Assembly (NCBI GenBank): GCA_964470815.1
Contig: CAYYEH010000004.1
Location: 16,442-80,441 of the forward strand
Length of the DNA: 64,000 nucleotides
Origin: an uncultured Rikenella sp.
GTDB lineage: Bacteria; Bacteroidota; Bacteroidia; Bacteroidales; VadinHA17
Reading direction: 5' to 3'
The notes beneath the pieces were generated by a model. It was not told the origin of the DNA. It did not search any database and saw only the letters and a program-made list of their open reading frames with translations. Positions 1 to 44,497 of this stretch are shown here, one piece after another. The position numbers and the translations under genes are program-made. The first letter of the stretch is position 1. Each line of letters opens with the position of its first letter.

Positions 1-716
1 TTTGAGAAGTAGGTTTCAGCAGCGCATGAGACAGCGTAGAGTCCGGGGGCAGGGACGAGTTTTGTAACGTCAGTCACGGGGATACGTATCATGGGCACCA
101 GGGTGGTGATACCCGGGTCTTCCTTCAGGGCATTGCCGATGACAAGGTAAAAGTGGTCGAGGTAGGCATTTGCCCGCTGGATGTATCCTTCTGTCAGCGC
201 CTGCCTGATACGTGTTGAGCTTACTGTCTCATTCTGCACCTCCTGCATGGGTATCTCCTCGGCCTCGAAACCGTATTTTTCCCTCCACTCCCACAGAGTA
301 CGATAGTCACCCTGCTGGTTGAACCCGAAATGGTGGTTATGGCCAACAACAATCACCCTGGCTCCAAGGATGCCGCAGAGGATATCACGTACGAATTCCT
401 CGCTTGTAATCCGGGCAAAGTCACGCGTAAACTCAATGATTATTACATTTTCAAGTCCGGCCTTCCGGAGGAGTTCGATCTTCTCTTCCTGTGAACATAT
501 CAGCTTCAGACCTTTGCCTGCGGTCTCCGGGTAGAGCACCACCCTCGGATGGGGATGAAAAGTGATCAGTACGCTCTCCCCTCCGTGTTCCGATGCCAGT
601 TTCTTCAGCCTGTTGATGATGGTCCGGTGACCGATGTGAACCCCGTCGAAGGTACCGGTCGTAACTACCGGGGCATTTATAACCGAGGCTTCCTGAAAGC
701 TCCTGAAGATCCTCAT
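1..716 (-). CDS. ribF: Bifunctional riboflavin kinase / FMN adenylyltransferase (RibF), C-terminus cut by window edge
   Basis: Absent from the ORF track because it is open at the window edge. My translation of the minus strand from ATG 716..714 reads MRIFRSFQEASVINAPVVTTGTFDGVHIGHRTIINRLKKLA...VIVVGHNHHFGF...VSSTRIRQAL, which carries the FAD-synthetase motifs GxFDGxHxGH and SSTxIR. Its ATG overlaps the rex stop (ATGA). Confidence 0.85.
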   Translation of the reverse strand, partial: MRIFRSFQEASVINAPVVTTGTFDGVHIGHRTIINRLKKLASEHGGESVLITFHPHPRVVLYPETAGKGLKLICSQEEKIELLRKAGLENVIIIEFTRDFARITSEEFVRDILCGILGARVIVVGHNHHFGFNQQGDYRTLWEWREKYGFEAEEIPMQEVQNETVSSTRIRQALTEGYIQRANAYLDHFYLVIGNALKEDPGITTLVPMIRIPVTDVTKLVPAPGLYAVSCAAETYFS

Positions 717-1351
717 TGTCCGGCCGGCTGCTTGTTTTCCTTGACATAGTAAGCTACCTTCTCAATGGAGGTGATCATGTCAAACTCTTCGAGGTAGACG
801 TTGTCAGGCACATTAAGGGGTACAGTGGTGAAATTCATGATACCCTTGATACCGTTGCTTACAAGCATTGATGAAGTGGATACAGCCTGGTCTGCGGGTA
901 CAGCCAGTACGGCGACGACAATATCAAGTTCTTCCCTGAGCTTCCTCATCTGGCTGATATTGTAGCACCGCACACCGGCAACAACTTTATCAACCTTCTG
1001 AGGATCAACGTCAAATGCTGCAACCACGTTCATATTGGTACGCCTGCCCATGAAATAGCCTGTGATGGCCCGGCCGAGGTTACCCATCCCGATGATTGCC
1101 ACATTGAGTCCTTTGGGAGCGTCAATTATGGAGCCGATGGTTTTGATCAATTCCCTTACATCATACCCTTTTCGCATGACGCTTCCGTAACCGATGAGCA
1201 TGAGATCACGCCTGACCTGAACGGCAGTGATATGCAGCATCGCCGCAAGCTCATGTGAGAAAACATAATTTCGGTTAGATGCCAGGGTGGTTATAAGTGC
1301 CCTTCTGTACTGGCTGAGGCGTTCAACTGTTTTTCCGGGTAGTGTTTTCAT
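713..1351 (-). CDS. rex: Redox-sensing transcriptional repressor Rex
   Basis: 212 aa. N-terminal winged helix (RLSQYRRAL, VFSHELAAMLHITAVQVRRDLMLIGYGS) and a Rossmann GxGxxG (IIGMGNLGRA), with overall Rex length and layout. There are 4-bp overlaps with both flanking genes. Confidence 0.9.
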   Translation of the reverse strand: MKTLPGKTVERLSQYRRALITTLASNRNYVFSHELAAMLHITAVQVRRDLMLIGYGSVMRKGYDVRELIKTIGSIIDAPKGLNVAIIGMGNLGRAITGYFMGRRTNMNVVAAFDVDPQKVDKVVAGVRCYNISQMRKLREELDIVVAVLAVPADQAVSTSSMLVSNGIKGIMNFTTVPLNVPDNVYLEEFDMITSIEKVAYYVKENKQPAGQ

Positions 1352-2496
1352 ATTCCTGTCTTTATATTGGAAACCTGAGACCTGGGGATGATCACGGTGA
1401 AGACTGATCCCCTGTCCGGGGCGCTCTCCACATTGATCACACCATGGTAGAGATCAACAACCTTTTTCACTATCGAGAGTCCCAGGCCGCTGCCGCTGAT
1501 GTTGCGGGTCTTGTCATTGCGGATCCTGGAGAACTCCTCGAAGAGCATATCACGTTCGTCACCGTTCATTCCAATCCCGGTGTCAGCCACCGAGACGGAG
1601 AATTCACTGTCATTGCAATCAACTGTTACCCTGACTGTTCCGCCGGGCTTGTTGTACTTCACGGCATTGGAGACGAGGTTATTGAGGATTATCTCGAAAT
1701 CGTTAGGGTCAGCCCAGATGGTTTCACATCCCCTGACCTCGGTGACAAACTGAATGTCCTTGTGTATTGCATAAGGGCTGACTGTTCCGACAGCCATGGA
1801 TACAAGCTCCTTCAGGTTCACATTCTGCATTTTCTCCATCTGCCGCTCAAAGTTCACCTTGGTGAAATCGAGCAGGTCCATTATCAGGTTCCTCATGCTC
1901 TCAATTCTCTGAAGTGATCTTTCTATTGCCGATGAATACTCATCCAGTGAATCGCCCATCTGCCTCTCCTGCATCATCCTGAGATAGCCCTCAATGGCAT
2001 TTAGGGGGGCCTTCAGTTCGTGAGACAGGACGGAAAGAAACTGGAACCTCACCTTCCTGCCCTCCACCTTGAGCTTGTGGGTTATCCTCCGAAGGTACTG
2101 CTGCTTTGTTATCTGTTCGATGGAGGCTTTCAGTTCCTGCGGGGTAAAAGGCTTGGGGATGAAGTCTATGGCTCCGTCATTGTGTGCCTTGACGGCAACA
2201 TCAATGGAAGCATAGGAGGTGATCATCGCCACGACAATGTCGTAGTTTTTCTTTCTCACATATTCTAGAACCTCAACACCCTGGATACCGGGAAGCTTAT
2301 TGTCAAGCAAAAGGATATCAGGCATCTCCCGGTCAATTATTTCTATTCCTTCCTCTCCTGTGGCAGCCTCCAGGATATTAAATGTATAATCCTCATCCAT
2401 AAACGGATAGGTGACATGAAAATTTCCCAGGATTCTTGATACACCTGATCGTATACCGGGTTCGTCATCAACTACAAGTACCTTCAGTTGTGCCAT
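1348..2496 (-). CDS. Hybrid response-regulator receiver / histidine kinase (REC-HisKA-HATPase_c)
   Basis: 382 aa. REC domain (VLVVDDEPGIR, LLLDNKLPG), H-box LSVLSHELKAPLNAI and ATPase boxes NLVSNAVKYN, DTGIGM, GSGLGLSIV. Confidence 0.9.
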   Translation of the reverse strand: MAQLKVLVVDDEPGIRSGVSRILGNFHVTYPFMDEDYTFNILEAATGEEGIEIIDREMPDILLLDNKLPGIQGVEVLEYVRKKNYDIVVAMITSYASIDVAVKAHNDGAIDFIPKPFTPQELKASIEQITKQQYLRRITHKLKVEGRKVRFQFLSVLSHELKAPLNAIEGYLRMMQERQMGDSLDEYSSAIERSLQRIESMRNLIMDLLDFTKVNFERQMEKMQNVNLKELVSMAVGTVSPYAIHKDIQFVTEVRGCETIWADPNDFEIILNNLVSNAVKYNKPGGTVRVTVDCNDSEFSVSVADTGIGMNGDERDMLFEEFSRIRNDKTRNISGSGLGLSIVKKVVDLYHGVINVESAPDRGSVFTVIIPRSQVSNIKTGI

Positions 2497-2498
2497 GG

Positions 2499-2891
2499 TC
2501 AGATCTTAAGAAGTTTCCTGATTTCCTGTTCAAGCTGCTCCGGCCTGACACCCTTTTCAAGGTAGAGGTCGGCCCTTATCCATTCACGGTCCTGTCCCCC
2601 GCTGAGTCCGAAGGTAATCCCGGTCTCGCGTGATACGGCAGTGGCGAGGATCACCGGGACTTCGGGGTATTTTCTCTTCAGCTTATAACAGAGTATGAAG
2701 CCGCTGTCATCGCTCTCCATCATAAGATCGAATACTGCTATATCAGGCTTCATCTTCGCTATCACCTGTTCAGCCTCAGCCTGGCTTTCAACGGCCATCA
2801 CCTCGAAACCTGCCTTGCGCAGGTAAAATGCCACCTGGAAAAGGTAATCGGGGTCATCGTCAGCAAGCAGGATTGTATAAATTTTACTCAT
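2499..2891 (-). CDS. Stand-alone response regulator receiver (CheY-like, no output domain)
   Basis: 130 aa, single REC domain (ILLADDDPD, AVFDLMM, VPVILATA). It lies 2 bp upstream of the hybrid kinase gene. Confidence 0.9.
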   Translation of the reverse strand: MSKIYTILLADDDPDYLFQVAFYLRKAGFEVMAVESQAEAEQVIAKMKPDIAVFDLMMESDDSGFILCYKLKRKYPEVPVILATAVSRETGITFGLSGGQDREWIRADLYLEKGVRPEQLEQEIRKLLKI

Positions 2892-2934
2892 TGCCTGGTT
2901 TTTTTTGTTTCTTCATGTTTTCAGTCACCTCCGG

Positions 2935-4899
2935 TTATTCAGGTCTTCTGGGCAAAATTATCCTGAACGTTGTTCCGGTTGGCCCTTTGGCAGGATCACT
3001 GTTTGTTTCAACTGTAATCTGCCCCTTGTGCATCTTGACGATGCCGTAGGTTGTGGCCAGACCCAGACCTGTACCCTTACCGAGCACCTTGGTGGTAAAG
3101 AAGGGTTCAAATATCTTGGGTTTATCCTCATCCTTTATTCCGCTGCCGGTATCGGAGACGATGAATACAACGTCGCTGGGAGTGTCCTCAAGGGTGACTG
3201 TCAGCGTGCCTCCCTCAGGCATTGCATCAATTGCATTCCTGAAGAGGTTTGTAAGCACCTGCGTCATCTGCTCGGAGTCGATGGAGGCATCCGGGCTGGT
3301 GGTACGGTCTTCGATGACTGCTTTCACGTTTTCCGGGAAGACCACTCCGGCCACGCTGTTCTCTGTCAGTTTCCTGATATCAATGAACTGGTGGTTGACC
3401 TGATTCTTGCGGGCAAAGTTGAGCAGCCCGGCAACTATCTTCTTACATCGTGCAGCCTGTTCCACGATGAGCTGCAGGTCCTCACGCACAGGATCTTCCG
3501 GTTTGCATTCATCAAGCAGTATGTTGCTGTACATGATTACCACCCCGAGGGGATTATTGAGTTCATGGGCAATACCGGCAGAGAGCTGACCCATGTGCGC
3601 AAGCTTCTCCGATTGCTTGAGAGCGTTCTGCATGGTGGTGAGCTTGGCATTGGAAAGTGCAAGGTCCTGCACTGACCTGTGCAGCTTTTCTATCGTATAG
3701 GGAAGGCACATCTCCTCCTCGGCCAAGCCCTTGATGATGGCTATGGCATGGTCATAGCATGTGTCATACCCGCATGCCCCGCAGTTAAGGTGATCCTTTT
3801 CAGTCACCTTGCCCATTGAAGCAAGAACTTTTCTGACCTCCTCATCCTCTGCCATCATCTGTCGCTTGTCCTCTTCGCGGAAACGGACAGTCAGATCAAG
3901 CCTGTCATAAATCTCCAGGTTGTTCCGCCACTCCTCCATATCGAGGGATGACATTTTATACTGGGCATATGAGCTCACGAGAGCCCTGCGGTTGTACTGT
4001 TTGCCACCCTTGCTCATGCCGGGACCCATTATGCATCCCTCGCAGCACAGCAGTTCAAGGTGTTGGCCGCCGATCATTCCCTGTTCAAATTCCTTGATGG
4101 CTTCCTGGAAGTCAATTCTTCCTTCGGCGGCTATTATGTTTCCTGTAATGGCATCATCATTGACACCGGCAGTCTGAAGCAGCCCGCGTGTCACCGGGAA
4201 TATGGCTCCCCTACCTCCCAGCGGCGGATCGAATTCGGAAGGCTCAGCCGTATCAGCCGTGATGGATGAAGACTCCAGCATCTCTCGCAGTTCTATGAAG
4301 GTGAGGGCTGCATCAACCTCAGAATTTTCAGCCTTCTTGGCAACACAGGGACCGATGAAGACCACCGAAAGGTCATTACCATGCTTCTTTCTCATCACCC
4401 TGGTCATTGCAACCATGGGTGATACCACAGGAATGAGCTCCGGTGTCAGGCCGGGATGGTAAAACCTGATAAAGGATACTATGGCCGGACAGTCTGATGA
4501 AATATAATTTTTTGCCCCGGCATCACTGATCATGTTACGGTAGCGGTGAGCCACGAGGTCAGCCCCGAATGAGACCTCGGCCACATAGTCAAACCCGAGG
4601 GCCCTGATCATACCGACAACCTTGCGGTGATCGGTCACGTCATGGAACTCGGCGGGGAAGCTCGGGGCTATCAGCGCCGCCTTTCTGCCGGGCCTGGCAA
4701 TAAGCTTCCTTACCAGGTCAACAGTATTGACAAATACCTTTGCACCCTGGCTGCATACCTTGGTGCAGTTACCGCAGGCAATGCATCTCTCGGTGATGAC
4801 CTCTGCCTGGCCTCCTACTATCCGGATGGCGCGGGCAGGGCACTCCCTGACGCAGGTATAGCATGTACGGCAAAGCTCTTTTATTGTATATACAAGCAT
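2935..4899 (-). CDS. Sensory [FeFe]-hydrogenase-like protein fused to a histidine kinase (2x[4Fe-4S] + H-cluster domain + CxxCGYxxC Fe-S motif + HisKA + HATPase_c)
   Basis: 654 aa. Ferredoxin motifs [12 protein letters not shown] and [12 protein letters not shown]-domain motifs [21 protein letters not shown] and [13 protein letters not shown]. An [15 protein letters not shown] motif, the H-box [13 protein letters not shown] and G-boxes SDTGSGI and GTGLGLATT. Confidence 0.85.
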
Positions 4900-4911
4900 C
4901 TCCTGTTCAGT

Positions 4912-6627
4912 TTAAAGCAATACGTCCCTCCTGCTGAAGTGAGTATGAAACAGCTTTTTATCAGCAAGCTCGGAACACTGTTCAAATACCCTGCCATAGA
5001 GGTCGGCGACGGAAGCTGACTGTTCAGGTCCGCGGACAGCTTCCTGGTCATCAGTCTGCCAGATGAATTTTACTCTCTGCCTCACAGCCTCCCTTGACCC
5101 GGCAGGGAGCATCCCGCCACCGTTGACACAGCCTCCGGGGCAGGTCATTACCTCGACGAGGTCATAATGCACCCCGCTTTCAATCATCTGCCTCACTTTG
5201 GACAGGCCTTTCAGCCCGTCAACCACCGCCACTTTATAACTCTCTCCTCCGGCTGTGACCGTCGTCTCGCGGAAGGTTCCGGTGTTGCGCAATTTCTTGA
5301 CTGCAGGCCTGTCAGCCTCCTTTTCACCCTTTCTGGCTGCCAGTGACCGGAGAACAGATTCAGTAATGCCCCCGGCAGATTCTGCCAGGAAGGAGGCAGA
5401 ACTGCGAAGCGCCATCGGCTCGTCAGCAGGCTCCGGATCAATATTCGTGATATCAATGCCATAGAGTACGATAAGCCGTGCCAGTTCCCTCACTGTCAAT
5501 ACGGTATCAATATCACTGATCCCCTTGCGGGTCATGCTGTCACGACGTGCCTCAAACTTCATTGCAGTGCACGGGGTAACGGATACAGTATAAACCCTTG
5601 GTTTATCATCACTTACTGGCACAACCGATTTGATTATTGAGCCTGATATCTGTTGCGGCGTTTTAAGGGTTGAGAGCATCGGCAGGAGTTCGGGTGTGAA
5701 CTGCTCACAGTATTTGACCCAGGCCGGGCATGCCGAGACTATCAGCGGTTTCCCGGCAGGATTTCCTTTTGTGCTGATGATGGCGTCAGTAAGTTCTGTT
5801 ATCAGAATATCAGTTCCTGTTCCCGAGAGGAAAATTTTATCGAAGCCGGTCTTCCTGAGTGCAGCATTGAGAAGCCTGTCGAAGTCGCGGTTGTATTTTA
5901 TGCCCAGTTCCTCTGCCAGGGCATACGGCACCAACGGGGAATACTGGATAACCCTTGTAACATCATGTCGGCTGAGCTGTTCCTGCACCTCTGCAAGATA
6001 ATGCTTTTCATGAAGGGCTCCGGTTGGGCACACCAGAACGCACTGGCCGCAGTGTATGCAGCTCGAGAAGTTGAAATCGCGGTCCATGGCCGGACCCACA
6101 TGTGTATAGCGCCCCCTGCCAATGAAGTCTATTGATGTGGCTGTGACCACCTCCTCGCAGATCCTAAGACAGCGGCCGCAGAGGATGCACTTTGAAAGCT
6201 CGCGGACAATGGCCGGGCTCGACTGGTCACGGCGTGGCTTGATCTTGCTTCCGCGTATGCGCCGCTCCCTCACCTGCATCTCATCTGACAGGCGCTGCAA
6301 TTCGCAGTCAAGATTGCGGTCACAGTACAGGCAGTCATCAGGATGGTTGGAAAGAAGGAGCTCGACGATTGTCTTGCGGGCCCTGATGACGCGGGGTGAA
6401 TGGGTCTTTATTTTCATCCACTCTTCAACAGGTGCCGAGCAGGCAGTGACAAGCCTGTCACGCCCCTCAACCTCCACCACGCACATACGACAGGCACCAG
6501 TAGGGGTGAACTCCGCCATACGGCAGAGTGTGGGAATGATTATGCCATTGCGGTTCAGGGCGGAGAGTATGGTCTCTCCCTTTTCGGCCCTGATGCTCTT
6601 GTTATTGACTTCGATGGTGAACTGCAT
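4912..6627 (-). CDS. hydA: [FeFe]-hydrogenase large subunit HydA-like (M3 architecture: [2Fe-2S] + His-ligated [4Fe-4S] + 2x[4Fe-4S] + H-domain), with atypical H-cluster pocket
   Basis: 571 aa. Cluster motifs are C35/C46/C49/C63, HPDDCLYCDRNLDC, CILCGRCLRIC and CIHCGQCVLVCP. H-domain motifs are VSACPAW (canonical TSCCPxW), TPCTAMKFE (canonical MPCxxKxxE) and EVMTCPGGCVNGGG. A small-subunit-like C-terminal tail is present. Tightly linked to hydB and hydC. Confidence 0.85.
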   Translation of the reverse strand: MQFTIEVNNKSIRAEKGETILSALNRNGIIIPTLCRMAEFTPTGACRMCVVEVEGRDRLVTACSAPVEEWMKIKTHSPRVIRARKTIVELLLSNHPDDCLYCDRNLDCELQRLSDEMQVRERRIRGSKIKPRRDQSSPAIVRELSKCILCGRCLRICEEVVTATSIDFIGRGRYTHVGPAMDRDFNFSSCIHCGQCVLVCPTGALHEKHYLAEVQEQLSRHDVTRVIQYSPLVPYALAEELGIKYNRDFDRLLNAALRKTGFDKIFLSGTGTDILITELTDAIISTKGNPAGKPLIVSACPAWVKYCEQFTPELLPMLSTLKTPQQISGSIIKSVVPVSDDKPRVYTVSVTPCTAMKFEARRDSMTRKGISDIDTVLTVRELARLIVLYGIDITNIDPEPADEPMALRSSASFLAESAGGITESVLRSLAARKGEKEADRPAVKKLRNTGTFRETTVTAGGESYKVAVVDGLKGLSKVRQMIESGVHYDLVEVMTCPGGCVNGGGMLPAGSREAVRQRVKFIWQTDDQEAVRGPEQSASVADLYGRVFEQCSELADKKLFHTHFSRRDVLL

Positions 6628-6630
6628 AGC

Positions 6631-8580
6631 TTATTTTACTGTAACCGCACTGAACTTGCAAACATCATAGCATACCCCACACCCGATGCATTTGTCCTCA
6701 ACAATAAAGAAGGGCTGCAGCCTTGTGCCGTATATGGCATTTACCGGGCATTTGGCGGCACAGACAGTGCAACCCGTGCACTTCTCAACATCGATGCTGA
6801 AGGTCCTCAGTCCGCGACAGACATTGGCACGGCATCGCCTGTCAAAGATATGCTCCTCAAACTCCTCGCGGTAGTTGGCAAGGGCGCTGATAAATGGATT
6901 TGGGGCTGTCTGCCCCAGGCCGCAGAGCGAAGTATCCTTCATCACCGAAGCGATGGTCTCAAGCTGCATCACCCCCTTGAACCTCTCAAGGGTTGCATTG
7001 GAGTCTTCACTATGAGGCTTCCGGACAACGTTTTCAAGAATCTCCTGCATCCGGCCCGTTCCCTCCCGGCAGGGGATGCATTTGCCACAGCTCTCCCGGT
7101 GGATGAACTCCATGTAATACCTCACGAAATCGACAAGACAGGTGGTCTCATCAATGATGATTAGCCCGCCCGAGCCCATGGCAATACCGTTTGCCCTGAG
7201 AACGTCATAATCTACAGGCAGATCGAGGTTCTTCTCTGTTATAAAGGTACCTGACGGACCTCCAATCTGGAGAGTCTTGAATGCCTTGCCGTCCCTGATA
7301 CCGTCAGCTATCCCCTCGGCAATGGTTCTGAAGGTAGTTCCCATTTCAACCTCGATAAGGCCTGTGAATCGCCCCCTTCCTCCGAGGGAGAAGAGTTTGG
7401 TGCCTTTGCTCCCTTCCGTACCCATCGATCTGAACCACTCCGGTCCGTGAGACATAATAAGTGGAACATTCATAAGGGTTTCCACGTTGTTTATTACGGT
7501 AGGCTTGCCGTACAGGCCGCTGGTGGTAGGATACGGCGGTTTGAGCTCAGGCATTCCCCGCTTGCCCTCCAGGGAGGCAATCAGTGCTGTCTCCTCTCCG
7601 CAGACGAATGCTCCGGCCTCTTCCCGTACTATTATCTCGAGGTTGAATCCGCTTGACAGGATATTGTGGCCGGTGATGCCGAATTCAGCGGCGGCGGCGA
7701 GTGCCTTTCGTAAACGTGCCAGCGGGTGGGGTGACCCGGTTTTCAGGTAGATGACTGCAGTGGAGGCCCCTATTGCGTATGAGGCAATGCATATACCTTC
7801 TATCAGCCTGTGCGGGTCACCCTCCATCACTGACCTGTCAGCGTATGATCCAGGATCGCTCTCCTTGGCATTGCAGATCAGGAACCTGTTGTCAGATGCC
7901 GAGTTGAGGGCGTACTTCCACTTCAGCCCGGTGTTGAAGCCGCCGCCGCTGCGACCACGCAGGCCGCTGCGCTCAACAATGTCACACACCTCTTCATGGG
8001 TATAGTTGCGAATTGTCTTCAGAAAGGCCCTGTATCCTCCCCGTGCTATATACTCCTCTATGCTTTCAGGGTCATAACAGCCGCAGTTTCCAAGAACCAC
8101 CCTCTTCTGCAGCCTGAAGAAGGGCACCTCCTCCATGAAGGGTATCTCATGCCAGGCCTCAAAGCCGTAACTGCCCGACTGTGCGACCAGGTCCTCCTCA
8201 GGCATATCATTGTGGAATACGCCGTTAAGAAGGGGCTCAATCTTGTCTTCAGTAATATTCCTGAAGATGAGTTTGTTCTTGCCGGGCAGATGAACACAAA
8301 CCAGGGGTTCAAATGCAGCAGGTCCGTGACAACCGGTCCGTACAACCTCACCCCTGATTCCCATCTCTTCCAGGTAAAGTTCTGCGGCAGCTGCGGTGAC
8401 GTTGGCTCCGGCAATTATTGCTGCGGACCCGGAAGCCACATAGATGACAGGTGCTGAGGGCTTGTCACGCCTTACTTCTGCAAGCCGCCTGGCTGTCTCA
8501 GAGGGCAGGGTGTCAGTGCCGTGCAGCAGCACCTCCCTGATAAGGAAATCTTTCAGGCCGTAGTCAGTAATCTTTTTCAT
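6631..8580 (-). CDS. hydB: NuoF-like flavoprotein subunit HydB of NAD(P)H-linked/bifurcating hydrogenase
   Basis: 649 aa. FMN/NADH motifs GRSGGGFNTGLKWK and GEETALIASLEGKRGMP. N3-type cluster motif ESCGKCIPCREG...CGLGQTAPNP. C-terminal 2x[4Fe-4S] motifs CTGCTVCAAKCP and CIGCGVCYDVC. Confidence 0.9.
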   Translation of the reverse strand: MKKITDYGLKDFLIREVLLHGTDTLPSETARRLAEVRRDKPSAPVIYVASGSAAIIAGANVTAAAAELYLEEMGIRGEVVRTGCHGPAAFEPLVCVHLPGKNKLIFRNITEDKIEPLLNGVFHNDMPEEDLVAQSGSYGFEAWHEIPFMEEVPFFRLQKRVVLGNCGCYDPESIEEYIARGGYRAFLKTIRNYTHEEVCDIVERSGLRGRSGGGFNTGLKWKYALNSASDNRFLICNAKESDPGSYADRSVMEGDPHRLIEGICIASYAIGASTAVIYLKTGSPHPLARLRKALAAAAEFGITGHNILSSGFNLEIIVREEAGAFVCGEETALIASLEGKRGMPELKPPYPTTSGLYGKPTVINNVETLMNVPLIMSHGPEWFRSMGTEGSKGTKLFSLGGRGRFTGLIEVEMGTTFRTIAEGIADGIRDGKAFKTLQIGGPSGTFITEKNLDLPVDYDVLRANGIAMGSGGLIIIDETTCLVDFVRYYMEFIHRESCGKCIPCREGTGRMQEILENVVRKPHSEDSNATLERFKGVMQLETIASVMKDTSLCGLGQTAPNPFISALANYREEFEEHIFDRRCRANVCRGLRTFSIDVEKCTGCTVCAAKCPVNAIYGTRLQPFFIVEDKCIGCGVCYDVCKFSAVTVK

Positions 8581-9044
8581 TTGAGGTCAGCCAGTGCTTT
8601 AAGTTTGGAAATAAGTTCGGGTATATCCTCGGGGCGCAGATGAGTATGGTATGTGTCACCGGTACAGACTACCGGCCCTTCATTGCACCCTCCCTGGCAG
8701 GCTGTAAGCTCATAGCTGAACCTGCCGTCACGGGTGGTCTGCCCCGGCTCAATGCCAAGTACCTCCTTTACAGCAGCAACCACCGATGCCGAACCGTTTA
8801 TGAAACAGGTGGTGCCGTTGCAAATGCGCATATGCATCCTGCCAGCCGGAATAAACCTGAAACGGTCATAAAAAGTTGCCAGTCCGAAAATCTTGGTGGT
8901 TGACATCTGCAGAAAACTGCCGATCTTCACGATAGCAGTCTCGGAAAGATACCCTTCGGCCTCCTGGACATCCTGCAGGATAGGTATCAGGTTTTCATGG
9001 CCTCCCTCCCTGTACCGGCTCAGAATATCATCTATCTTACTCAT
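8577..9044 (-). CDS. hydC: NuoE-like thioredoxin-fold [2Fe-2S] subunit HydC
   Basis: 155 aa. Motifs CNGTTCFINGS and CQGGCNEGP (Cx4C...Cx3C). 4-bp overlap with hydB. Confidence 0.88.
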   Translation of the reverse strand: MSKIDDILSRYREGGHENLIPILQDVQEAEGYLSETAIVKIGSFLQMSTTKIFGLATFYDRFRFIPAGRMHMRICNGTTCFINGSASVVAAVKEVLGIEPGQTTRDGRFSYELTACQGGCNEGPVVCTGDTYHTHLRPEDIPELISKLKALADLK

Positions 9045-9075
9045 TTTAAAAACGATCTGACTTTTCAGAGAAATA

Positions 9076-9083
9076 CAAAGCTA
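9076..9083 (-). promoter_or_regulatory. Bacteroidota-type -7 promoter box (TAGCTTTG) for the hydC operon
   Basis: The minus strand reads TAGCTTTG, matching TAnnTTTG, 32 nt upstream of the hydC ATG (9044). Confidence 0.45.
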
Positions 9084-9110
9084 TTGTTTTTTATTGTTAT
9101 TTCAAAAACA

Positions 9111-9128
9111 TTGTTATTTTATTAACAA
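9111..9128. promoter_or_regulatory. Candidate Rex operator (TTGTTATTTTATTAACAA)
   Basis: 18-bp inverted repeat with perfect TTGTTA/TAACAA arms. It has one mismatch to the Rex consensus TTGTTAAnnnnTTAACAA as I recall it for Clostridia and Thermotogae. It lies in the divergent hydC / ferredoxin promoter region, and rex is encoded in the same operon. Confidence 0.55.
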
Positions 9129-9155
9129 ATAACTGCTGAATTTAACATTTCCCGG

Positions 9156-9458
9156 GTGCAGGCGTTGGAAATTGTTGTACTTTTGAGTGAATATGAACTA
9201 AACTTCAGGCTGTTGGGACAATCGTACAACATCGAGATATGTCTTGGAAGCTCCTGTTTTTCAAGAGGTAACAGGGAGGTAGTACAGGTCATAAGGGATT
9301 ATCTCCGGAAAAATCACCTAGATGACAAGGTGGTGCTCAGGGGAGCACGCTGCATGAACCGTTGCAGCGAGGGTCCCTTTATTATTATCAATGGAAGGAC
9401 TTTTACCGGTACCGGTATCCAGGATATTGAGAAGCTCCTGGAGAAGGAGCTGGTATAG
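9156..9458 (+). CDS. Small thioredoxin-like [2Fe-2S] ferredoxin (NuoE/HydC-like)
   Basis: About 100 aa. Motifs ICLGSSCFSRGN and GARCMNRCSEGP (Cx4C...Cx3C). The start is uncertain: GTG at 9156, or in-frame TTG/CTG codons up to about 9213, with no in-frame ATG near the 5' end. Confidence 0.7.
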   Translation: MQALEIVVLLSEYELNFRLLGQSYNIEICLGSSCFSRGNREVVQVIRDYLRKNHLDDKVVLRGARCMNRCSEGPFIIINGRTFTGTGIQDIEKLLEKELV

Positions 9459-9487
9459 GGATTTTCAGGACAACTAATTTACTGATT

Positions 9488-11365
9488 ATGAAGATACCGG
9501 ATCAGGTAATATATATAAATGAGGACAAGTGTCGCAACTCCTATTCATGTGTGAGGGTATGCCCTGTCAATGCGTTGGAGGTGAGGCCCGAGAGGGCGCA
9601 TCCCGTAATTATTGCTGACAGGTGCATCGGTTGCGGCCTCTGTTTCCTGTCGTGTTCACCCCGTGCCATTGAGTTCAGGGACTCGCGCACCCAGGTGAAG
9701 CAGATACTGCAGTCGGGCCGTCGTACGGCAGCACTGATAGCACCCAGCATAGCGTCAGAGTTTGATGACATAACCGACTACCGCAAGTTTGTGGGGATGA
9801 TCCGAAGCCTTGGATTCACATATGTGCATGAGGTATCATTTGGTGTTGACCTGGTAGCCTATGCCTACAAGAAGCTCTTCGAGGAGTCGAGCGGCAAGTA
9901 CTACATTACCTCCAACTGCCCATCCATAGTAGAGATGATCGAGAAGTACCATCCGCACCTGGTGCCTAACCTCGCACCACTGGTTTCACCGATGGTAGCG
10001 ACGGCGATGGTGACGCGTGACCTTTACGGTGATGATGTGGCAAACGTATTCATCGGCCCCTGCATTGACATCAAGGCTGAAGCAACCCTTTACCAGGAAA
10101 AGAACCTCGTGGAGGCTGTCCTGACTTTCATTGAGATCAGGCAGCTCTTCGAAGAGTACGAGATACAGGAGAAGACCGTAAAGATGGCCGAGTTTGATCC
10201 TCCCTTCGGCAACTGGGGGGCCCTTTACCCTTATCCTGCAGGCATACTGCAGGCTGCAGGCATCAAGCGTGATCTTGTCTCCAGCCAGGTAATAACTGCC
10301 TCCGGCTCCGAGGATGTGAAGGAAGCAATCAACGATTTCGACCATCATATTGATACAATAAGGCACCACTTCAATCTCTTCTTCTGTCCGGGATGCATGC
10401 TCGGTCCGGGAATGATCAGGCATGACGAACGCTTCAGACGCCGTTCTCTGGTCAAACAGTACGCCGAGAAGCGTGTTGAGACCCTCGACAAGGAGCAATG
10501 GAAAAAGGATATGGACCGGTGGTCGGGGCTTGACCTGACGCACAGCTTCAGGGCCAATGATCAGCGGATCCCGGAACCGCCACAGGAGGCAGTAATGGAG
10601 GTTATGAAGATAATTGGCAAGGATAACCGCTCCGAAGAGCTGAACTGCAATGCCTGCGGCTATGGGTCATGCCGGGAGTTTGCTGCAACGGTGGCCAAGG
10701 GCCTGGCTGTTCCGGAGATGTGCCACACCTACAACCTGCGGAACAAGCAGGAATATATTGAGACCCTGAGGCAGACAAACAAAAAACTATCTGAGACCAA
10801 AAAGGCCCTGAAGGAGTCGGAAGAGCAGGCCATGCGTGAAAAGGATGCAGCACAGGATGCATCGGACACCATGAACAGCATGCTCAACAAGCTGCCCAAC
10901 GGAGTGGTTATAGTCGACAATGAGCTGAAAATACTGCAGTCAAACGCACGGTTCCTTGAAATAATCGGAGAGGATGCAAAGGCTATCGCGGAGATAATAC
11001 CAGGGCTGAGGGGCGCCGATCTTAAGACACTTCTTCCTTTCAATGTCTACAATATTTTCTCCTTTGTTCTGCGCGAAAACGAATCTGTCATCAGCCGCGA
11101 CGTTCAGCTTGAAGACCGGATGTTCAACATATCCATCTTCCCAATCAGGCAGAACAGGATAGCGGGGGCGGTGATACGTGACCTTTTCTCACCTGAGGTA
11201 CAGCGTGAAGAGGTTATAAACAGGGTATCCGACGTCATCGATAAAAACCTTGAAATGGTTCAGAAAATAGGTTTCCTGCTGGGTGAAGGGGCTTCAGAGA
11301 CGGAGAAGATGCTGAATTCCATCGTAGAATCATTCCGACAGAAGAAGAATGCACCCGGAAAGTAG
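9488..11365 (+). CDS. Sensory [FeFe]-hydrogenase-like protein HydS type (2x[4Fe-4S] + H-cluster domain + CxxCGYxxC + PAS)
   Basis: 625 aa. Ferredoxin motifs CRNSYSCVRVCP and CIGCGLCFLSC. H-domain motifs YITSNCPSIV, FIGPCIDIKAE and FFCPGCMLGPGM. An LNCNACGYGSCREFA motif and a C-terminal PAS-like segment (LPNGVVIVDNELKILQSNARFLEIIG). Confidence 0.85.
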   Translation: MKIPDQVIYINEDKCRNSYSCVRVCPVNALEVRPERAHPVIIADRCIGCGLCFLSCSPRAIEFRDSRTQVKQILQSGRRTAALIAPSIASEFDDITDYRKFVGMIRSLGFTYVHEVSFGVDLVAYAYKKLFEESSGKYYITSNCPSIVEMIEKYHPHLVPNLAPLVSPMVATAMVTRDLYGDDVANVFIGPCIDIKAEATLYQEKNLVEAVLTFIEIRQLFEEYEIQEKTVKMAEFDPPFGNWGALYPYPAGILQAAGIKRDLVSSQVITASGSEDVKEAINDFDHHIDTIRHHFNLFFCPGCMLGPGMIRHDERFRRRSLVKQYAEKRVETLDKEQWKKDMDRWSGLDLTHSFRANDQRIPEPPQEAVMEVMKIIGKDNRSEELNCNACGYGSCREFAATVAKGLAVPEMCHTYNLRNKQEYIETLRQTNKKLSETKKALKESEEQAMREKDAAQDASDTMNSMLNKLPNGVVIVDNELKILQSNARFLEIIGEDAKAIAEIIPGLRGADLKTLLPFNVYNIFSFVLRENESVISRDVQLEDRMFNISIFPIRQNRIAGAVIRDLFSPEVQREEVINRVSDVIDKNLEMVQKIGFLLGEGASETEKMLNSIVESFRQKKNAPGK

Positions 11366-12563
11366 CACCACCGAAATCATGGAGAGGCAGTTCTTCATTG
11401 AGGTCAACAGTCAGCAGCGCAATCACCACGGAGAGCGTATCTGCGGAGATGTGTTCCTGTCAGAAAACGTGCGCGAGGAAAACCGCATCATCACGGTGTT
11501 GTCTGACGGTATGGGACACGGTGTAAAGGCCAATATCCTGGCTACTCTTACCTCAACCATGTCACTGAATTTCACCCGTGAGCATAAGGAACCTGACCGT
11601 ATTGCCGAGATCATCATGAATACCCTCCCTGTATGCTCGGAGAGGAAGATCAGCTATGCCACCTTTTCAATTGTTGACATTGAAAGTGACGGGAGGGCAA
11701 ACATCCTTGAATATGATAATCCGCGCTGTATCATCCTCAGGGGGAATCAGCCATTTGAACCCGACTGGAGGGATGTTGTGCTTGACAAGGGGCGGAATGC
11801 CGGCAAGCGGCTGCATAAGTGCACCTTCTACCCTTCCAAGGAAGACCGTATAATCCTCCTCTCCGACGGTGTTGCGCAGAGCGGCATGGGTTCAGCTGCA
11901 TGGCCACTGGGATGGGAACGTGACAATGTACAGTTGTATGCCGCCTCGCTTGTTGCCGGTGAACCATCCATCTCTGCCTCCACCCTGGCGGCCAAGATAG
12001 TGAACATGGCTTACAAACATGACAATTACGAGGCTAAGGATGACATCTCATGTGCTGTACTCTACTTCAGGGAGCCGCGCAAGCTGCTGATATGCACCGG
12101 CCCTCCCTATGAGGAGGAAAAGGATAAGGAACTGGCTGAAAAAGTGACCGGATACAAGGGAAAAGTGATACTGTGCGGCGGCACCACGGCCGATATTGTA
12201 GCCCGTGAACTGAACCGCAAGATAGTTGACGAACTGATATTCGAAGACCCTGACCTTCCTCCGGAGAGCTTCATGGAGGGGGTTGACCTGGTCACCGAGG
12301 GAATCCTTACCCTGCAGAAGGTCAATGAGCTGGTCAAGGGTTACAAAAACAGTGTCAAGCTGGGAAAAGGACCGGCAGACAAAATTGTCAAACTGATAAT
12401 GGAAAGCGACGAGATCAACTTCCTTGTCGGTACCCGGATAAATGTGGCTCACCAGGATCCTGCACTGCCGGTTGACCTCGAAATACGGCGGACAGTGGTT
12501 AAGCGCATTGCCCGCATCCTTGAGGACAAGTGGCTGAAGCAGGTCTCCGTTGATTATATCTGA
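11349..12563 (+). CDS. SpoIIE/PP2C-family serine phosphatase with about 170-aa C-terminal domain of unknown function
   Basis: 404 aa. PP2C/SpoIIE signature ERICGDVFL...VLSDGMGHGVKANILA...LLSDGV. An alternative start is ATG 11379 (MERQFF), 13 nt after the upstream stop. Confidence 0.8.
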   Translation: MHPESSTTEIMERQFFIEVNSQQRNHHGERICGDVFLSENVREENRIITVLSDGMGHGVKANILATLTSTMSLNFTREHKEPDRIAEIIMNTLPVCSERKISYATFSIVDIESDGRANILEYDNPRCIILRGNQPFEPDWRDVVLDKGRNAGKRLHKCTFYPSKEDRIILLSDGVAQSGMGSAAWPLGWERDNVQLYAASLVAGEPSISASTLAAKIVNMAYKHDNYEAKDDISCAVLYFREPRKLLICTGPPYEEEKDKELAEKVTGYKGKVILCGGTTADIVARELNRKIVDELIFEDPDLPPESFMEGVDLVTEGILTLQKVNELVKGYKNSVKLGKGPADKIVKLIMESDEINFLVGTRINVAHQDPALPVDLEIRRTVVKRIARILEDKWLKQVSVDYI

Positions 12564-13124: not shown

Positions 13125-14300
13125 ATGTTGTTTTACCTCATACTGCTGACAGCTGACCTGTTTCTGTGGTTTCTGTTGCTGAAGGAGCTCAGGGATAAAA
13201 ACAGGTTCCTCAGGTATGCGGTTTTGTTTGTCAAGGGGGCAGTATCGGCAATATTTATCACTCTTTTCCTGAGGATAGTGTTTTACCGGGGTGAGTTTGC
13301 CGAGCCGGCAAATGCGTTCAGGCAGATCCAGATGGGCACAATGGCCTTTCTCCTGGCAACGGCATCAGGATTATGCCTTTCTGTGACTCTTCTCGGCCGG
13401 CTCCTGGCCTTTTTCAGGAAGAGGGAAAGCAGATGGATCAGCCGGATTAATGTGTTTGTCTTTCTGTCTACCGTGCTCATTGTTGCAGACGGTTATTTCC
13501 GGCAGAGGCTTGATATCCGTTTTGTAAGGGAGGAGGTAACAATACGGGGACTTGATCCGGCGCTCAGCGGCCTGAGGGTAGCTCTTGTTTCCGACCTGCA
13601 CCTGTCATCCTGGCATGGAAGCTATGCACGGCTTGACAGGGCCATGCAGGCTGTGAGTGATGAAAAACCTGACCTGGTTCTGAACACAGGTGACTTCATA
13701 ACCTTCGGGTGGCAGGAATTCGGAAGTTCTGACACGATTTTGCACAAGGCATCCGGGCAGGCAGGGGAATTTGCCGTAACTGGCAACCATGATGACGGGT
13801 CCTACTATCCCGGGTATGATGATAACTATGGAAACCTCTGCCGGGAGATGCTCAAAAACAAGATCGAAGCATCAGGATATACTCTCCTTACCGACAGTGC
13901 TGTCATCATTTCTTACCGGGGTGCTGAAATTGCAATTGCCGGGGTGGACACTCGCGGTCAACATCTTGATATGAGATATGGTGATTTTGAAAAGGTACTC
14001 TCACCGATCCCTGATTCCATATTAACAATACTCCTTCTCCATGATCCGGAAGGATGGCTGCTCTCATCCGTGTCAGGCCGTTTGCCCCACCTGACTGTAG
14101 CAGGCCACACACACGGATTCCAGATCGGATTGCCGGGAGGAATCTGGTCACCTTCATCACTGATTCATGACAGGTGGAAAGGGCTGTATGAGTTCAGGGG
14201 GAGACATCTGTATGTCACCTCCGGACTTGGGACGATGGGCATGGCGGCAAGGTTCTTCATGCCCCCCGAAATAGTGATCCTGACGCTGGTTGCAGGATAA
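13125..14300 (+). CDS. Membrane-anchored metallophosphoesterase
   Basis: N-terminal hydrophobic helices followed by calcineurin-like motifs VSDLHLS, NTGDFITFG, VTGNHDD, LLHDP and AGHTHG. Confidence 0.85.
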   Translation: MLFYLILLTADLFLWFLLLKELRDKNRFLRYAVLFVKGAVSAIFITLFLRIVFYRGEFAEPANAFRQIQMGTMAFLLATASGLCLSVTLLGRLLAFFRKRESRWISRINVFVFLSTVLIVADGYFRQRLDIRFVREEVTIRGLDPALSGLRVALVSDLHLSSWHGSYARLDRAMQAVSDEKPDLVLNTGDFITFGWQEFGSSDTILHKASGQAGEFAVTGNHDDGSYYPGYDDNYGNLCREMLKNKIEASGYTLLTDSAVIISYRGAEIAIAGVDTRGQHLDMRYGDFEKVLSPIPDSILTILLLHDPEGWLLSSVSGRLPHLTVAGHTHGFQIGLPGGIWSPSSLIHDRWKGLYEFRGRHLYVTSGLGTMGMAARFFMPPEIVILTLVAG

Positions 14301-14382
14301 AACTCACCACACGGACGCGGAGCCGTGTTTGCCTGATATGTTCGTCACGGGCAAACGGTATCTGAATAGACTCCGGAATTAC

Positions 14383-14407
14383 CTGCCGGTTTTAATGTTA
14401 CCGGCAG
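14383..14407. repeat. Inverted repeat / hairpin (8-bp stem CTGCCGGT...ACCGGCAG, 9-nt loop)
   Basis: Read directly from the sequence. It is the third of three hairpins in the 14310..14407 spacer downstream of the phosphoesterase gene. It has no T-tract, so a terminator role is uncertain. Confidence 0.35.
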
Positions 14408-14480
14408 TCTGTCAACCCTCGTCCTGCCCCGGAAATGATAAAATTGTACCCCCTCAATAACAATCAATTGACCAAATTAA

Positions 14481-14488
14481 TACCTTTG
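14481..14488 (+). promoter_or_regulatory. -7 promoter box TACCTTTG
   Basis: Matches TAnnTTTG, 26 nt upstream of ATG 14514. Confidence 0.45.
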
Positions 14489-14513
14489 CTTTTTTTACAG
14501 TATCTTTTTGAAG

Positions 14514-16094: not shown

Positions 16095-16109
16095 TCCGGC
16101 TTCAGCAGC

Positions 16110-16808
16110 ATGGGAAGGAGAACTCTCTCCCTTTCAACCGGGGAGGTTGAAGTTGACATTGTAAGGTCAGGCAGGAGGACCGTGGCGCTTTATGTGAGGC
16201 CGGGCGGGACATTACTGATAAGGGCACCATGGTATGTTCCCGTCAGGATGCTGATGAACTTTGCCGCAGAAAAATCAAGGTGGATAGAGCGCCAGGTAAC
16301 CCGACTTAAGAATGTAACTCCGCCTGGAGAGGCGATGACGGTCAGTGATGGCACCACGGTACCTTTTCTGGGCAGGGAACTTACCGTTACGGTAAAAGAG
16401 GGCTCCCGCCGTATGGTTTCACATGTTGAAGGAAGTCTTATTCTGACAACCAAGGGCATCACCATCCCCGGGGAACTTGCCCGGATGACTGAAGCATGGT
16501 ACCTTCGCGAGGCCAGGGGATACCTTACAAAACGTACAGAGCAGCTTGCCGCAGAGCATTACCGGTTGATACCTTCACCCGCAACAATAAAAGTCCGCAA
16601 AATGAAACGGAGGTGGGGAACATGCCACACCAGCGGGGTAATCTGGCTCAACAGGGAACTGATTAAGAAGGACCCCGGGCTGATTGACTATGTCATAATT
16701 CACGAATTGTGCCACCTGGTGCATCATAATCACGGCAGGGACTATTATGAACTGCTTGCACGGATAATGCCTGATTACCAGGAACGAAGGAAAAGGCTTC
16801 AGCTTTAG
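16110..16808 (+). CDS. YgjP/DUF45-family (M48-like) metal-dependent hydrolase
   Basis: Motif RWGTC...IWLNRELIKKDPGLIDYVIIHELCHLVHHNH (HExxH). Confidence 0.8.
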   Translation: MGRRTLSLSTGEVEVDIVRSGRRTVALYVRPGGTLLIRAPWYVPVRMLMNFAAEKSRWIERQVTRLKNVTPPGEAMTVSDGTTVPFLGRELTVTVKEGSRRMVSHVEGSLILTTKGITIPGELARMTEAWYLREARGYLTKRTEQLAAEHYRLIPSPATIKVRKMKRRWGTCHTSGVIWLNRELIKKDPGLIDYVIIHELCHLVHHNHGRDYYELLARIMPDYQERRKRLQL

Positions 16809-16812
16809 GCCA

Positions 16813-44465: not shown

Positions 44466-44497
44466 ATAAATGTCTCCTTACTTTTTCGCTTAAATTG

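Follow-up and report, generated by a model that had tools for sequence, protein, structure and literature searches.

How might an anaerobic bacterium tie a hydrogenase to both H2 and the redox state of the cell? This question is raised by a gene cluster of an uncultured Rikenella sp. (VadinHA17), in which the genes of a three-subunit hydrogenase, HydABC, stand together with genes for two further hydrogenase-like proteins and for the NADH/NAD+-sensing repressor Rex. The cluster lies at the left end of a 64,000-nt stretch (assembly GCA_964470815.1, contig CAYYEH010000004.1, positions 16,442 to 80,441, forward strand) that was analyzed as a whole and is here called the window. An earlier, sequence-only reading of this DNA described the two additional proteins as sensory [FeFe]-hydrogenase paralogues, one fused to a histidine kinase (HK) and the other linked to a PAS domain and a PP2C phosphatase, and proposed that they act together as a push-pull circuit. 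Here, we assigned genes by Pfam and NCBIfam scans of the open reading frames (ORFs) in the window and compared the locus with its relatives. With moderate confidence, we read it as the central part of a hydrogen/redox regulon that is conserved in Bacteroidales and made up of a Bfu-type HydABC, two independent hydrogenase-derived sensor modules, and Rex.

Layout and conservation of the locus

The minus-strand gene order hydC-hydB-hydA-(H-domain::HK)-REC-(REC::HK)-rex-ribF that had been described, with junctions of -4 to +43 bp, was reproduced by the ORF map and the Pfam and NCBIfam scans (Table 1); from hydC to ribF, the junctions are -4, +3, +12, +43, +2, -4, and -4 bp. Domain scans likewise recovered the divergent plus-strand set of a [2Fe-2S] ferredoxin, the H-domain::PAS protein, and the PP2C. 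H-domains were found in all three proteins expected to carry one; as to their classing, HydA falls under the group A model cut-offs.

Identical layout on 23 independent metagenome contigs, on which the kinase-fused protein is identical and has the same neighbors, and synteny in approximately 30 Genome Taxonomy Database (GTDB) species of the clade rule out an artefact or a chimera. Over 120 cluster representatives, labelled Bacteroidales, match the kinase-fused protein at ≥83% identity, and it occurs in 36 GTDB species of uncultured Bacteroidales whose metagenome-assembled genomes carry the labels “Rikenellaceae/Rikenella sp.” Loci of relatives used in the synteny and context comparisons are labelled L001 to L057. 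When ten window proteins were searched by tblastn, the complete layout was recovered wherever the contig was long enough, even for L037, the most divergent of the clade (55 to 74% identity). The two-sensor layout with Rex, RibF, and a TM1266-like protein is also present in the distant loci L054, L055, and L056, the last two of which have HydG as well. The expectation that such an arrangement would be unusual for Bacteroidota did not hold up, given the syntenic clade species and these distant loci; it is common in this lineage, and it is not already characterized.

Because L052 has the kinase branch alone with HydABC and L057 has the PAS/PP2C branch alone with HydABC, without rex or ribF, the two branches are separable modules, and it is the kinase branch that rex and ribF accompany. 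Identity across lineages is 62 to 64% for the PP2C, 54 to 64% for the kinase sensor, 44 to 51% for HydA, and 36 to 44% for HydC, so that the regulators are conserved more than the enzyme subunits. Judged from its conservation across contigs and species of the clade, the cluster is real, under selection, and common in its lineage.

Two putative hydrogenase-derived sensors

The residues that matter most for the following comparisons, numbered as in CpI, are Lys358, the cyanide-anchoring residue, and C299, the proton-relay cysteine. Invariance counts for the clade include the window sequence (32 sequences of the kinase-fused protein, 26 of the PAS-linked protein, and 29 of HydA). In the kinase-fused protein, two [4Fe-4S] motifs (Fer4-family matches at residues 4 to 53) are followed by the H-domain (Fe_hyd_lg_C, 145 bits in Pfam), a Cx2Cx4Cx16C cluster (PF04060) with the motif CGACGYDTC-x16-C, HisKA (H445), and HATPase_c; there is no PAS domain, and HisKA comes directly after the C-terminal cluster. 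The four H-cluster cysteines (CpI C300, C355, C499, and C503) are invariant in the 32 sequences. Asp stands at C299 and Gly at M353, K358 and the APS motif are kept, and the pocket motifs APS, S-D-C-P, and GPC[VI]AKK are invariant across lineages. As Asp is the one replacement of C299 tolerated in prototypical enzymes and both K358 and APS are kept, the kinase-fused sensor has, to judge by its residues, the best-preserved [2Fe] pocket among the three H-domain proteins. The phosphorelay residues are intact in the sensor kinase (H445), in the REC::HK protein (H149), and in the two receivers (D55/T84/K113 and D65/T93/K115).

The PAS-linked protein has the same order of two [4Fe-4S] motifs (Fer4-family matches at residues 8 to 61), H-domain (Fe_hyd_lg_C, 138 bits in Pfam), and Cx2Cx4Cx16C cluster (PF04060; motif CNACGYGSC-x16-C), followed by a coiled coil and PAS, an assignment that is borderline (PAS_10 reaches 23.0 bits where the cut-off is 22.1, and other PAS matches are weaker). 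All four H-cluster cysteines are invariant in 26 of 26 clade sequences; relative to CpI, C299 is replaced by Asn, M353 by Gly, and K358 by Ile, and K359 is kept. The PAS-type orthologue of L054 (5324-7171) has lost all four H-cluster ligands, and those of L055 (5213-7078) and L057 (5044-6894) have Asn in place of C499. These three proteins retain the N-terminal iron-sulfur (FeS) motifs, the Cx2Cx4Cx16C cluster, and the PP2C partner, the PAS match being confirmed for some of them only, and they look like pseudo-hydrogenase sensors. H2 sensing by the PAS branch has the intact cysteines of the window clade in its favor and, given these losses, is doubtful as a property of the family.

Both proteins thus carry the paired [4Fe-4S] motifs, H-cluster cysteines, and CxxCGYxxC motif attributed to them by the sequence-only reading, the H-cluster cysteines and the Cx2Cx4Cx16C motif being invariant in 26 to 32 clade sequences, and the alignment confirms that the H-cluster cysteines of the two sensors are conserved in this clade. 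These cysteines, Gly at 353, the Cx2Cx4Cx16C cluster, and the absence of C299 and of the canonical proton pathway give both proteins the traits of [FeFe]-hydrogenases of the putative sensory group C. Published descriptions of groups C and D name as hallmarks that C299 and the proton pathway are missing, that position 353 has a small residue, and that a Cx2Cx4Cx16C cluster is present (PMC8163306, PMC10055695). The kinase-linked and phosphatase-linked subtypes that the sequence-only reading mentioned exist in HydDB as group C1 (histidine kinase-linked) and group C3 (phosphatase-linked), both putative sensors (PMC5037454). Our labels C1-like and C3-like rest on context, namely, the fused kinase and the adjacent PP2C.

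The PP2C has the metal-binding motifs DGMGHG, SDG, and DD, and a Foldseek search with its model matched SpoIIE, RsbX, and RsbU (E values of 7e-13 to 4e-11). Its identity is 77 to 98% over 120 clusters. The C-terminal domain (12069-12563, 164 aa, alpha/beta) is conserved more strongly than the hydrogenase subunits, with 89% mean column identity in a 13-sequence domain alignment and motifs that include GGTTADIVAREL, DLVTEGILTLQKV, and GTRINVAHQDP. This domain had no Pfam match at E values up to 1, and the whole-protein fold search matched the PP2C part alone; a model of the domain by itself (pLDDT 81) gave weak methylglyoxal-synthase-like and flavodoxin-like matches (best E value of 1.2e-3, TM 0.40).

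HydABC and its non-canonical HydA

Together, HydA, HydB, and HydC have the Bfu three-subunit architecture (M3 HydA, HydB with FMN and NuoF features, and [2Fe-2S] HydC). HydB scores 599 bits against the bifurcating NiFe-HydB 7t2r_B, 552 against A. woodii HydB, and 523 against T. maritima HydB. In this clade, the modules for electron transfer and flavin binding that typify bifurcating enzymes are still present in HydABC. It resembles the solved HydABC/Bfu complexes of T. maritima (7p5h), A. woodii (7q4v), and T. kivui (8a6t) in its three-subunit set, the HydA domain order, the FMN and two C-terminal [4Fe-4S] clusters of HydB, and the [2Fe-2S] cluster of HydC. Unlike them, it has a HydA with six substitutions in the active-site shell, which is, by our estimate, approximately 40% identical to theirs and lies under the group A cut-offs.

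Direct alignment to CpI, on which the residue numbering of the HydA H-domain was taken and verified, gave the substitutions E279L, E282A, R286T, C299A, M353T, K358M, and S232L; these states were found to be invariant in 29 of 29 clade sequences. The sequence-only reading had not remarked that HydA lacks the proton-relay cysteine. The ligands C300, C355, C499, and C503 are retained, as are P231, P324/Q325, M497, E278, S319, K359, and the P3 motif. Motif P1 reads VSACPAW and P2 reads TPCTAMK, matching neither the canonical A3 motifs (P1 TSC[CS]PxW, P2 MPCxxKK; PMC11406978) nor the E279/E282/R286/C299 path. The natural P1 is the same as that of an engineered CpI C299A variant among the PDB matches (6gly). 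In NCBIfam, HydA reached 544 against a cut-off of 765 for NF040763 (group A6) and 332.5 against 405.95 for TIGR02512 (group A).

The nearest 50%-cluster representatives of HydA are 64% identical (own clade) and then ≤47%; they have the same architecture and are likewise non-canonical at 299, 353, and 358. Canonical HydA sequences of the type E-E-R-C-[CS]...M-P-C-x-x-K-K are mostly ≤43% identical to that of the window. A profile search with the non-canonical relatives returned mostly canonical Bacteroidota HydA; among 118 newly returned sequences, position 299 was C, D, S, L, F, or T. Asp was found there in approximately 26 of 114 length-filtered Bacteroidota matches, Ala is also among the natural states of HydABC-type HydA, and changes at 353 and 358 are often coupled. 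In prototypical enzymes, Asp is the sole replacement of C299 without loss of activity (PMC10055695). Position 299 is Ser in L054 and Phe in L055, and the HydA of L056 (Tenuifilaceae) is canonical. Within the clade, the H-domain diverges 4 to 6 times faster than the N-terminal FeS domain, compared with 1.5 to 1.8 times in canonical Bacteroidota HydA, a test that is suggestive only, as pairs were binned by overall identity, which partly forces the ratio. The most variable stretch (residues 282 to 294) is the former proton-pathway helix.

The active site of HydA is sensor-like, without the canonical proton path, and, by analogy with TmHydS and TamHydS and with published data on C299A, the enzyme is probably slow or strongly biased rather than a CpI-like high-flux hydrogenase. 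We tentatively extend this in two directions that belong together and that we think possible rather than likely. The locus may encode no conventional fast hydrogenase among its three H-cluster proteins, HydABC itself now being slow, sensor-like, or strongly biased, with Ala at the proton-relay position, Met in place of Lys358, and a freely evolving former proton-pathway helix next to highly conserved flavin and FeS modules, such that the locus might be a three-input measuring device for H2, NADH, and ferredoxin or a very high-affinity, low-flux H2 valve. Jointly, natural replacement of C299 (by D, S, L, F, T, or A) might be common in Bacteroidota HydABC and would then define an overlooked functional subclass of “group A3.”

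A separate observation concerns the neighboring ligand. Many canonical HydABC-type HydA sequences, including A. woodii HydA1 (7q4v), have TSCSPxW as P1, with Ser aligned to ligand C300 and Cys at 299, and Cys/Ser variation at the C300-aligned position has been noted (PMC11406978).

The control region and Rex

The divergent intergenic control region is 111 bp long and holds a Bacteroidetes -33/-7 promoter for hydC (-7 box, TAGCTTTG). The consensus of the Bacteroidetes -7 box is TAnnTTTG; a search for it, used in place of a sigma-70 scan, found it at approximately -39 from hydC in nearly all related loci. Upstream lies a putative Rex operator, TTGTTATTTTATTAACAA, an exact match to TTGTTA-N6-TAACAA. 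With up to 1 mismatch allowed, this pattern occurs just once in the 64 kb, compared with 0.07 occurrences expected, and the box is found approximately 85 nt upstream of hydC in every related locus. A second, weaker Rex-like box, ATGTTTTTGAAATAACAA on the minus strand, abuts the first and is present at approximately -68 from hydC in all clade loci, with 0 to 2 mismatches. Tandem Rex boxes also precede hydC in lineages whose HydC is just 36 to 44% identical. The earlier proposal that Rex acts on the hydrogenase locus is strongly backed by the unique exact palindrome and by the conserved tandem pair.

Rex is the sole DNA-binding protein encoded in the locus, and its gene lies within the operon that it would repress. 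As rex sits in an operon with Rex boxes over its promoter, negative autoregulation is predicted. The arrangement is like the Rex regulons of anaerobes in its 18-bp palindrome of the TTGTTA...TAACAA type, in the position of that palindrome upstream of a hydrogenase operon, and in the autoregulation of rex, predicted here. It is unlike them in having two abutting operators with one base in common and in the placement of rex far downstream inside the regulated operon. Ravcheev and colleagues are said to have described, in 2012, Rex operators of anaerobes as TTGTGAA-N4-TTCACAA or TTGTTAA-N4-TTAACAA. Rex would gate the whole gene set by NADH/NAD+; the boxes and promoter are seen, and from them we infer binding and effect. 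In other organisms, control of HydABC or Hnd has been ascribed, by proposal, to Rex and HydS (PMC10084766, PMC5707799).

In two related loci (L016 and L023), the region upstream of hydC is expanded by repeats approximately 49 nt apart, each with a TAACTTTG box (3 to 5 copies), so that the Rex boxes are found as far out as -210 and -303.

Another conserved -7 box (TACTTTTG) is on the plus strand. Because it falls within the 5' part of the ferredoxin ORF as read from GTG and because most ferredoxin orthologues align only from residue 15 to 20 or so (some are full-length), the ferredoxin start is probably TTG 9213 instead of GTG 9156. The probable start of the PP2C is ATG 11379.

A proposed regulon and its alternatives

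In the regulon that we propose, Rex would occupy its operators at low NADH/NAD+, occlude the hydC promoter, and silence hydCBA, hydS-HK, rec, rec-HK, rex, ribF, hydG, and the TM1266-like gene, perhaps together with the divergent fdx-hydS(PAS)-PP2C operon. Rising NADH would release Rex and allow expression of the whole set, including its flavin and H-cluster maturation functions. H2 would bind at the slow, sensor-type H-cluster of the kinase-fused paralogue, and by way of the C-terminal [4Fe-4S] domain and a coiled coil a redox or conformational change would reach the DHp/CA kinase core, from which phosphate would go to the stand-alone REC, to REC::HK, or to both, with REC::HK relaying it onward. 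The PAS-linked paralogue and its private [2Fe-2S] ferredoxin would control the PP2C, acting on some phospho-Ser/Thr protein, as a further input, separable from the first, that senses H2, the redox state of ferredoxin, or both.

Several points weigh against this proposal. The final output of the kinase branch is not encoded in the locus: there is no DNA-binding or helix-turn-helix response regulator among its genes, and the REC proteins have no output domain except the kinase. Nor does the locus encode a STAS protein or a Ser/Thr kinase for the phosphatase branch. With K358 absent from the PAS-linked protein and H-cluster cysteines lost in sister lineages, the conserved role of the PAS-type protein may be something other than H2 sensing. 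HydA, without K358 and C299, may bind no normal [2Fe] subcluster. It is the short junctions alone that suggest co-transcription of the 8 to 10 genes, and a pattern scan for sigma-70 promoters and intrinsic terminators, uninformative for Bacteroidetes, stayed at background level. The C-terminal cluster of TamHydS is unresponsive to H2, and H2-dependent signalling to an output has not been demonstrated for any group C member (PMC13104023), as the sequence-only reading had stated of signalling mechanisms.

Rival accounts differ chiefly in what the two additional H-domain proteins are taken to do. In the push-pull circuit, the kinase and phosphatase branches would oppose each other at a single phospho-target through which hyd expression is set. 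Both modules do flank the same HydABC operon and one shared control region, and they are found together throughout the window clade and in L054 to L056. Histidine kinases act on His/Asp, however, and PP2C enzymes on phospho-Ser/Thr. We consider this circuit unlikely because the chemistries differ, because no common substrate is encoded in the locus, and because the branches occur singly with HydABC in L052 and L057; the PP2C also lacks a REC domain by Pfam and fold search, and in L054 the PAS-type ligands are lost while the kinase sensor is intact. Still less credible to us is the idea that the additional H-domain proteins are “BfuT”-like subunits that tune HydABC catalysis and transduce no signal. 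Tight linkage of their genes to hydABC and the naming of C3 proteins as T subunits (PMC11406978) fit it, but one of the proteins has a complete HisKA/HATPase with its H-box, followed by two cognate-looking REC proteins, the other has PAS and is followed by a phosphatase, and the solved HydABC complexes contain no such subunit, PDB matches being to A, B, and C subunits only.

More serious, though we do not favor it, is the possibility that one or both sensors report the ferredoxin/NADH redox state through their [4Fe-4S] clusters rather than H2. The H-domain would then be a scaffold that lacks a [2Fe] site or can do without one, and this would apply most of all to the PAS-linked protein. The L054, L055, and L057 orthologues argue for this in keeping their N-terminal clusters, Cx2Cx4Cx16C motif, and PP2C partner after ligand loss, as do the missing K358 in the window, the co-encoded dedicated [2Fe-2S] ferredoxin, and the hardly detectable H-cluster motifs of Hydrogenedentota C1 proteins (PMC11406978). 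The regulon proposal can set against this the invariance of the four PAS-type cysteines throughout the window clade, strict conservation of the kinase-fused pocket, including K358 and APS, across lineages, and a hydG gene in the same run with hydE nearby, which would make H-cluster maturation available. A related doubt attaches to HydA, which might no longer be a hydrogenase in this clade, carrying only a [4Fe-4S] cluster and leaving HydABC as an NADH:ferredoxin oxidoreductase or a redox partner of the sensors. The six clade-invariant substitutions point in that direction, as do the fast H-domain, the scores under the NCBIfam group A cut-offs, and the plain [4Fe-4S] cluster that Bfu-type NiFe enzymes carry at the H-cluster position (PMC9304861). 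We nevertheless find it rather improbable: the four ligands, P231, P324/Q325, M497, K359, and the P3 motif are all invariant, H2 turnover persists in TmHydS, which also has Ala at position 299 (PMC10055695), and the otherwise identical L056 locus has a canonical HydA.

Relation to described systems

The sensors resemble T. maritima HydS (TmHydS; group C, M2f, PAS) and T. mathranii TamHydS (group D) in the N-terminal 2x[4Fe-4S], the four cluster cysteines, the loss of C299 and the proton pathway, Gly in place of M353, and the Cx2Cx4Cx16C cluster; the 9488-11365 protein shares PAS as well, and the sensor genes likewise adjoin a group A hydrogenase. They differ in having Asp (kinase-fused) or Asn (PAS-linked) at position 299, where TmHydS and TamHydS have Ala. 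Compared with TmHydS, one paralogue has a fused HisKA/HATPase in place of PAS, and the PAS-linked one is without K358. The host here belongs to the Bacteroidales rather than to the Thermotogae or Firmicutes, and the paralogues are known from their genes alone.

Adjacency to A3 BfuABC genes is reported in Hydrogenedentota for 21 of 53 C1 genes and for almost every C3 gene, and the C3 proteins carry PAS or His-kinase domains (PMC11406978). Here, unlike in that phylum, a single HydABC operon is flanked by members of both classes, with Rex, two REC proteins, RibF, and HydG in a fixed layout, the A3-type HydA beside the sensors is non-canonical, and Rex operators and a promoter have been mapped. 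A C1 gene is also located next to the hnd region of Petrimonas mucosa, a cultured Bacteroidales species (PMC7768429).

The phosphatase branch has its closest described counterpart in hfsABCD of Thermoanaerobacterium, in which the PAS-containing, HydS-like HfsB is followed by the Ser phosphatase HfsC, HfsD is a ferredoxin-linked hydrogenase, and the hfsB/hfsC module is regulatory by genetic evidence (PMC11837493). The window likewise has an HfsB-like PAS protein followed by an HfsC-like phosphatase. HfsA is described as unlike known proteins, whereas the first gene here encodes a clear thioredoxin-like [2Fe-2S] protein. For the hydS unit of R. albus, Rex and HydS are proposed to set hydrogenase expression by H2 pressure (PMC5707799, PMC10084766). 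In these Firmicutes, the module sits with a monomeric ferredoxin-dependent HfsD/HydA2 and a Ser/Thr kinase, whereas the module of the window diverges from HydABC and no Ser/Thr kinase accompanies it. Pfam scans of the genes of the locus and of the larger ORFs in the window revealed no ferredoxin-dependent hydrogenase of the monomeric kind, which sets the locus apart from the hfsABCD type. A reading of HfsD as a kinase-fused hydrogenase was considered and rejected, since the papers describe a ferredoxin-linked hydrogenase (PMC11837493). As a type, then, the locus is known and uncharacterized; the two-sensor/Rex/REC/REC::HK/RibF/HydG layout, tandem Rex operators, and non-canonical HydA were not found combined in the published descriptions examined.

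With the kinase fused directly to its sensor and accompanied by two receivers, H2 sensing could be read out by autophosphorylation and phosphotransfer assays, and cultivable relatives offer an access point through the C1 gene near hnd in Petrimonas mucosa (PMC7768429). The Rex operators and promoter give a concrete model for the combination of NADH and H2 signals in abundant anaerobic Bacteroidales. The non-canonical HydA implies that metagenomic “group A3” counts may pool enzymes of very different kinetics, a caveat that bears on H2-production models for digesters, sediments, and guts.

Extent of the gene run and other features of the window

In L001, the minus-strand run extends beyond ribF to hydG and then to a tandem TM1266-like gene (Table 1); both belong to the same gene run and were overlooked by the sequence-only reading. 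The gene for hydE lies on the opposite strand approximately 3 kb further on, behind a peptidase M14 gene, and no hydF was seen within 10 kb in the L001 neighborhood. For RibF of the clade, Pfam gives only the FAD-synthetase domain, even at E values up to 1, and scores are under all NCBIfam cut-offs for bifunctional RibF; RibF of L055 and L056 do show a flavokinase domain.

Table 1. Positions of the genes and control elements of the locus in the window and of the extended gene run in the related locus L001
Feature	Position	Strand	Basis or remark
ribF (FAD synthetase), 5' part, continuing past the left window edge	1-716	minus	FAD_syn 151 bits
rex, NADH/NAD+ redox-sensing repressor	713-1351	minus	Put_DNA-bind_N and CoA_binding; NF003995 189.9 bits vs cut-off 126
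REC::HisKA::HATPase_c hybrid (response-regulator-kinase; REC::HK)	1348-2496	minus	Pfam; D65, T93, K115, H149 present
Stand-alone REC (CheY-like)	2499-2891	minus	Pfam; acidic pocket D11/D12/D13, acceptor D55, T84, K113
Kinase-fused sensory [FeFe]-hydrogenase paralogue (HydS-HK, C1-like), 654 aa	2935-4899	minus	Pfam and motifs
HydA, M3 architecture, domain order of bifurcating enzymes	4912-6627	minus	Fer2_4, NuoG-type 4Fe-4S, 2x[4Fe-4S], Fe_hyd_lg_C, small-subunit domain
HydB, NuoF-like Bfu-type flavoprotein	6631-8580	minus	FMN/NADH site, NuoF [4Fe-4S], two C-terminal [4Fe-4S] motifs
HydC, NuoE-like [2Fe-2S] subunit	8577-9044	minus	2Fe-2S_thioredx 145 bits
-7 promoter box of the hydC operon, TAGCTTTG	9076-9083	minus	-33 TTTG at 9103-9106, 19-nt spacer
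Rex-like operator 2 (putative), ATGTTTTTGAAATAACAA	9094-9111		2 mismatches; overlaps -33 element and spacer of the hydC promoter
Rex operator 1 (putative), TTGTTATTTTATTAACAA	9111-9128		exact match to TTGTTA-N6-TAACAA
Small thioredoxin-like [2Fe-2S] ferredoxin, CX4C...CX3C	9156-9458	plus	Pfam, sequence reading
Second conserved -7 box, TACTTTTG	9178-9185	plus	inside 5' end of GTG-started ferredoxin ORF
PAS-linked sensory [FeFe]-hydrogenase paralogue (HydS-PAS, TmHydS/HfsB-like, C3-like context), 625 aa	9488-11365	plus	Pfam and motifs
PP2C/SpoIIE-type Ser/Thr phosphatase	11349-12563	plus	SpoIIE 49 bits
L001 ribF	14184-15095		window 1-716 is its 5' part
L001 hydG	15135-16598	same as L001 ribF	HydG 483 bits
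L001 TM1266/CPF_0552-like gene	16609-17133	same as L001 ribF	annotated as putative iron-only hydrogenase system regulator
L001 hydE	19977-21065	opposite to L001 ribF	

An Rfam scan of the window gave no family at threshold. Fermentation genes are found at 42096-45391, 39745-41058, and 46373-48121, encoding a pyruvate formate-lyase-like glycyl-radical enzyme (731 bits), a malic enzyme, and a biotin protein like the alpha subunit of oxaloacetate decarboxylase; the 297-aa ORF after the pyruvate formate-lyase-like gene is a candidate activase. A 1415-aa protein with two BcrAD/BadFG ATPase domains and DUF2229, of the CoA-enzyme activase type, is encoded at 56254-60501. The GC content drops to 0.45 at 31866-35806, compared with approximately 0.51, with a positive AT skew, and this dip spans two adjacent DUF3857 genes, the second of which also has a transglutaminase-like core.

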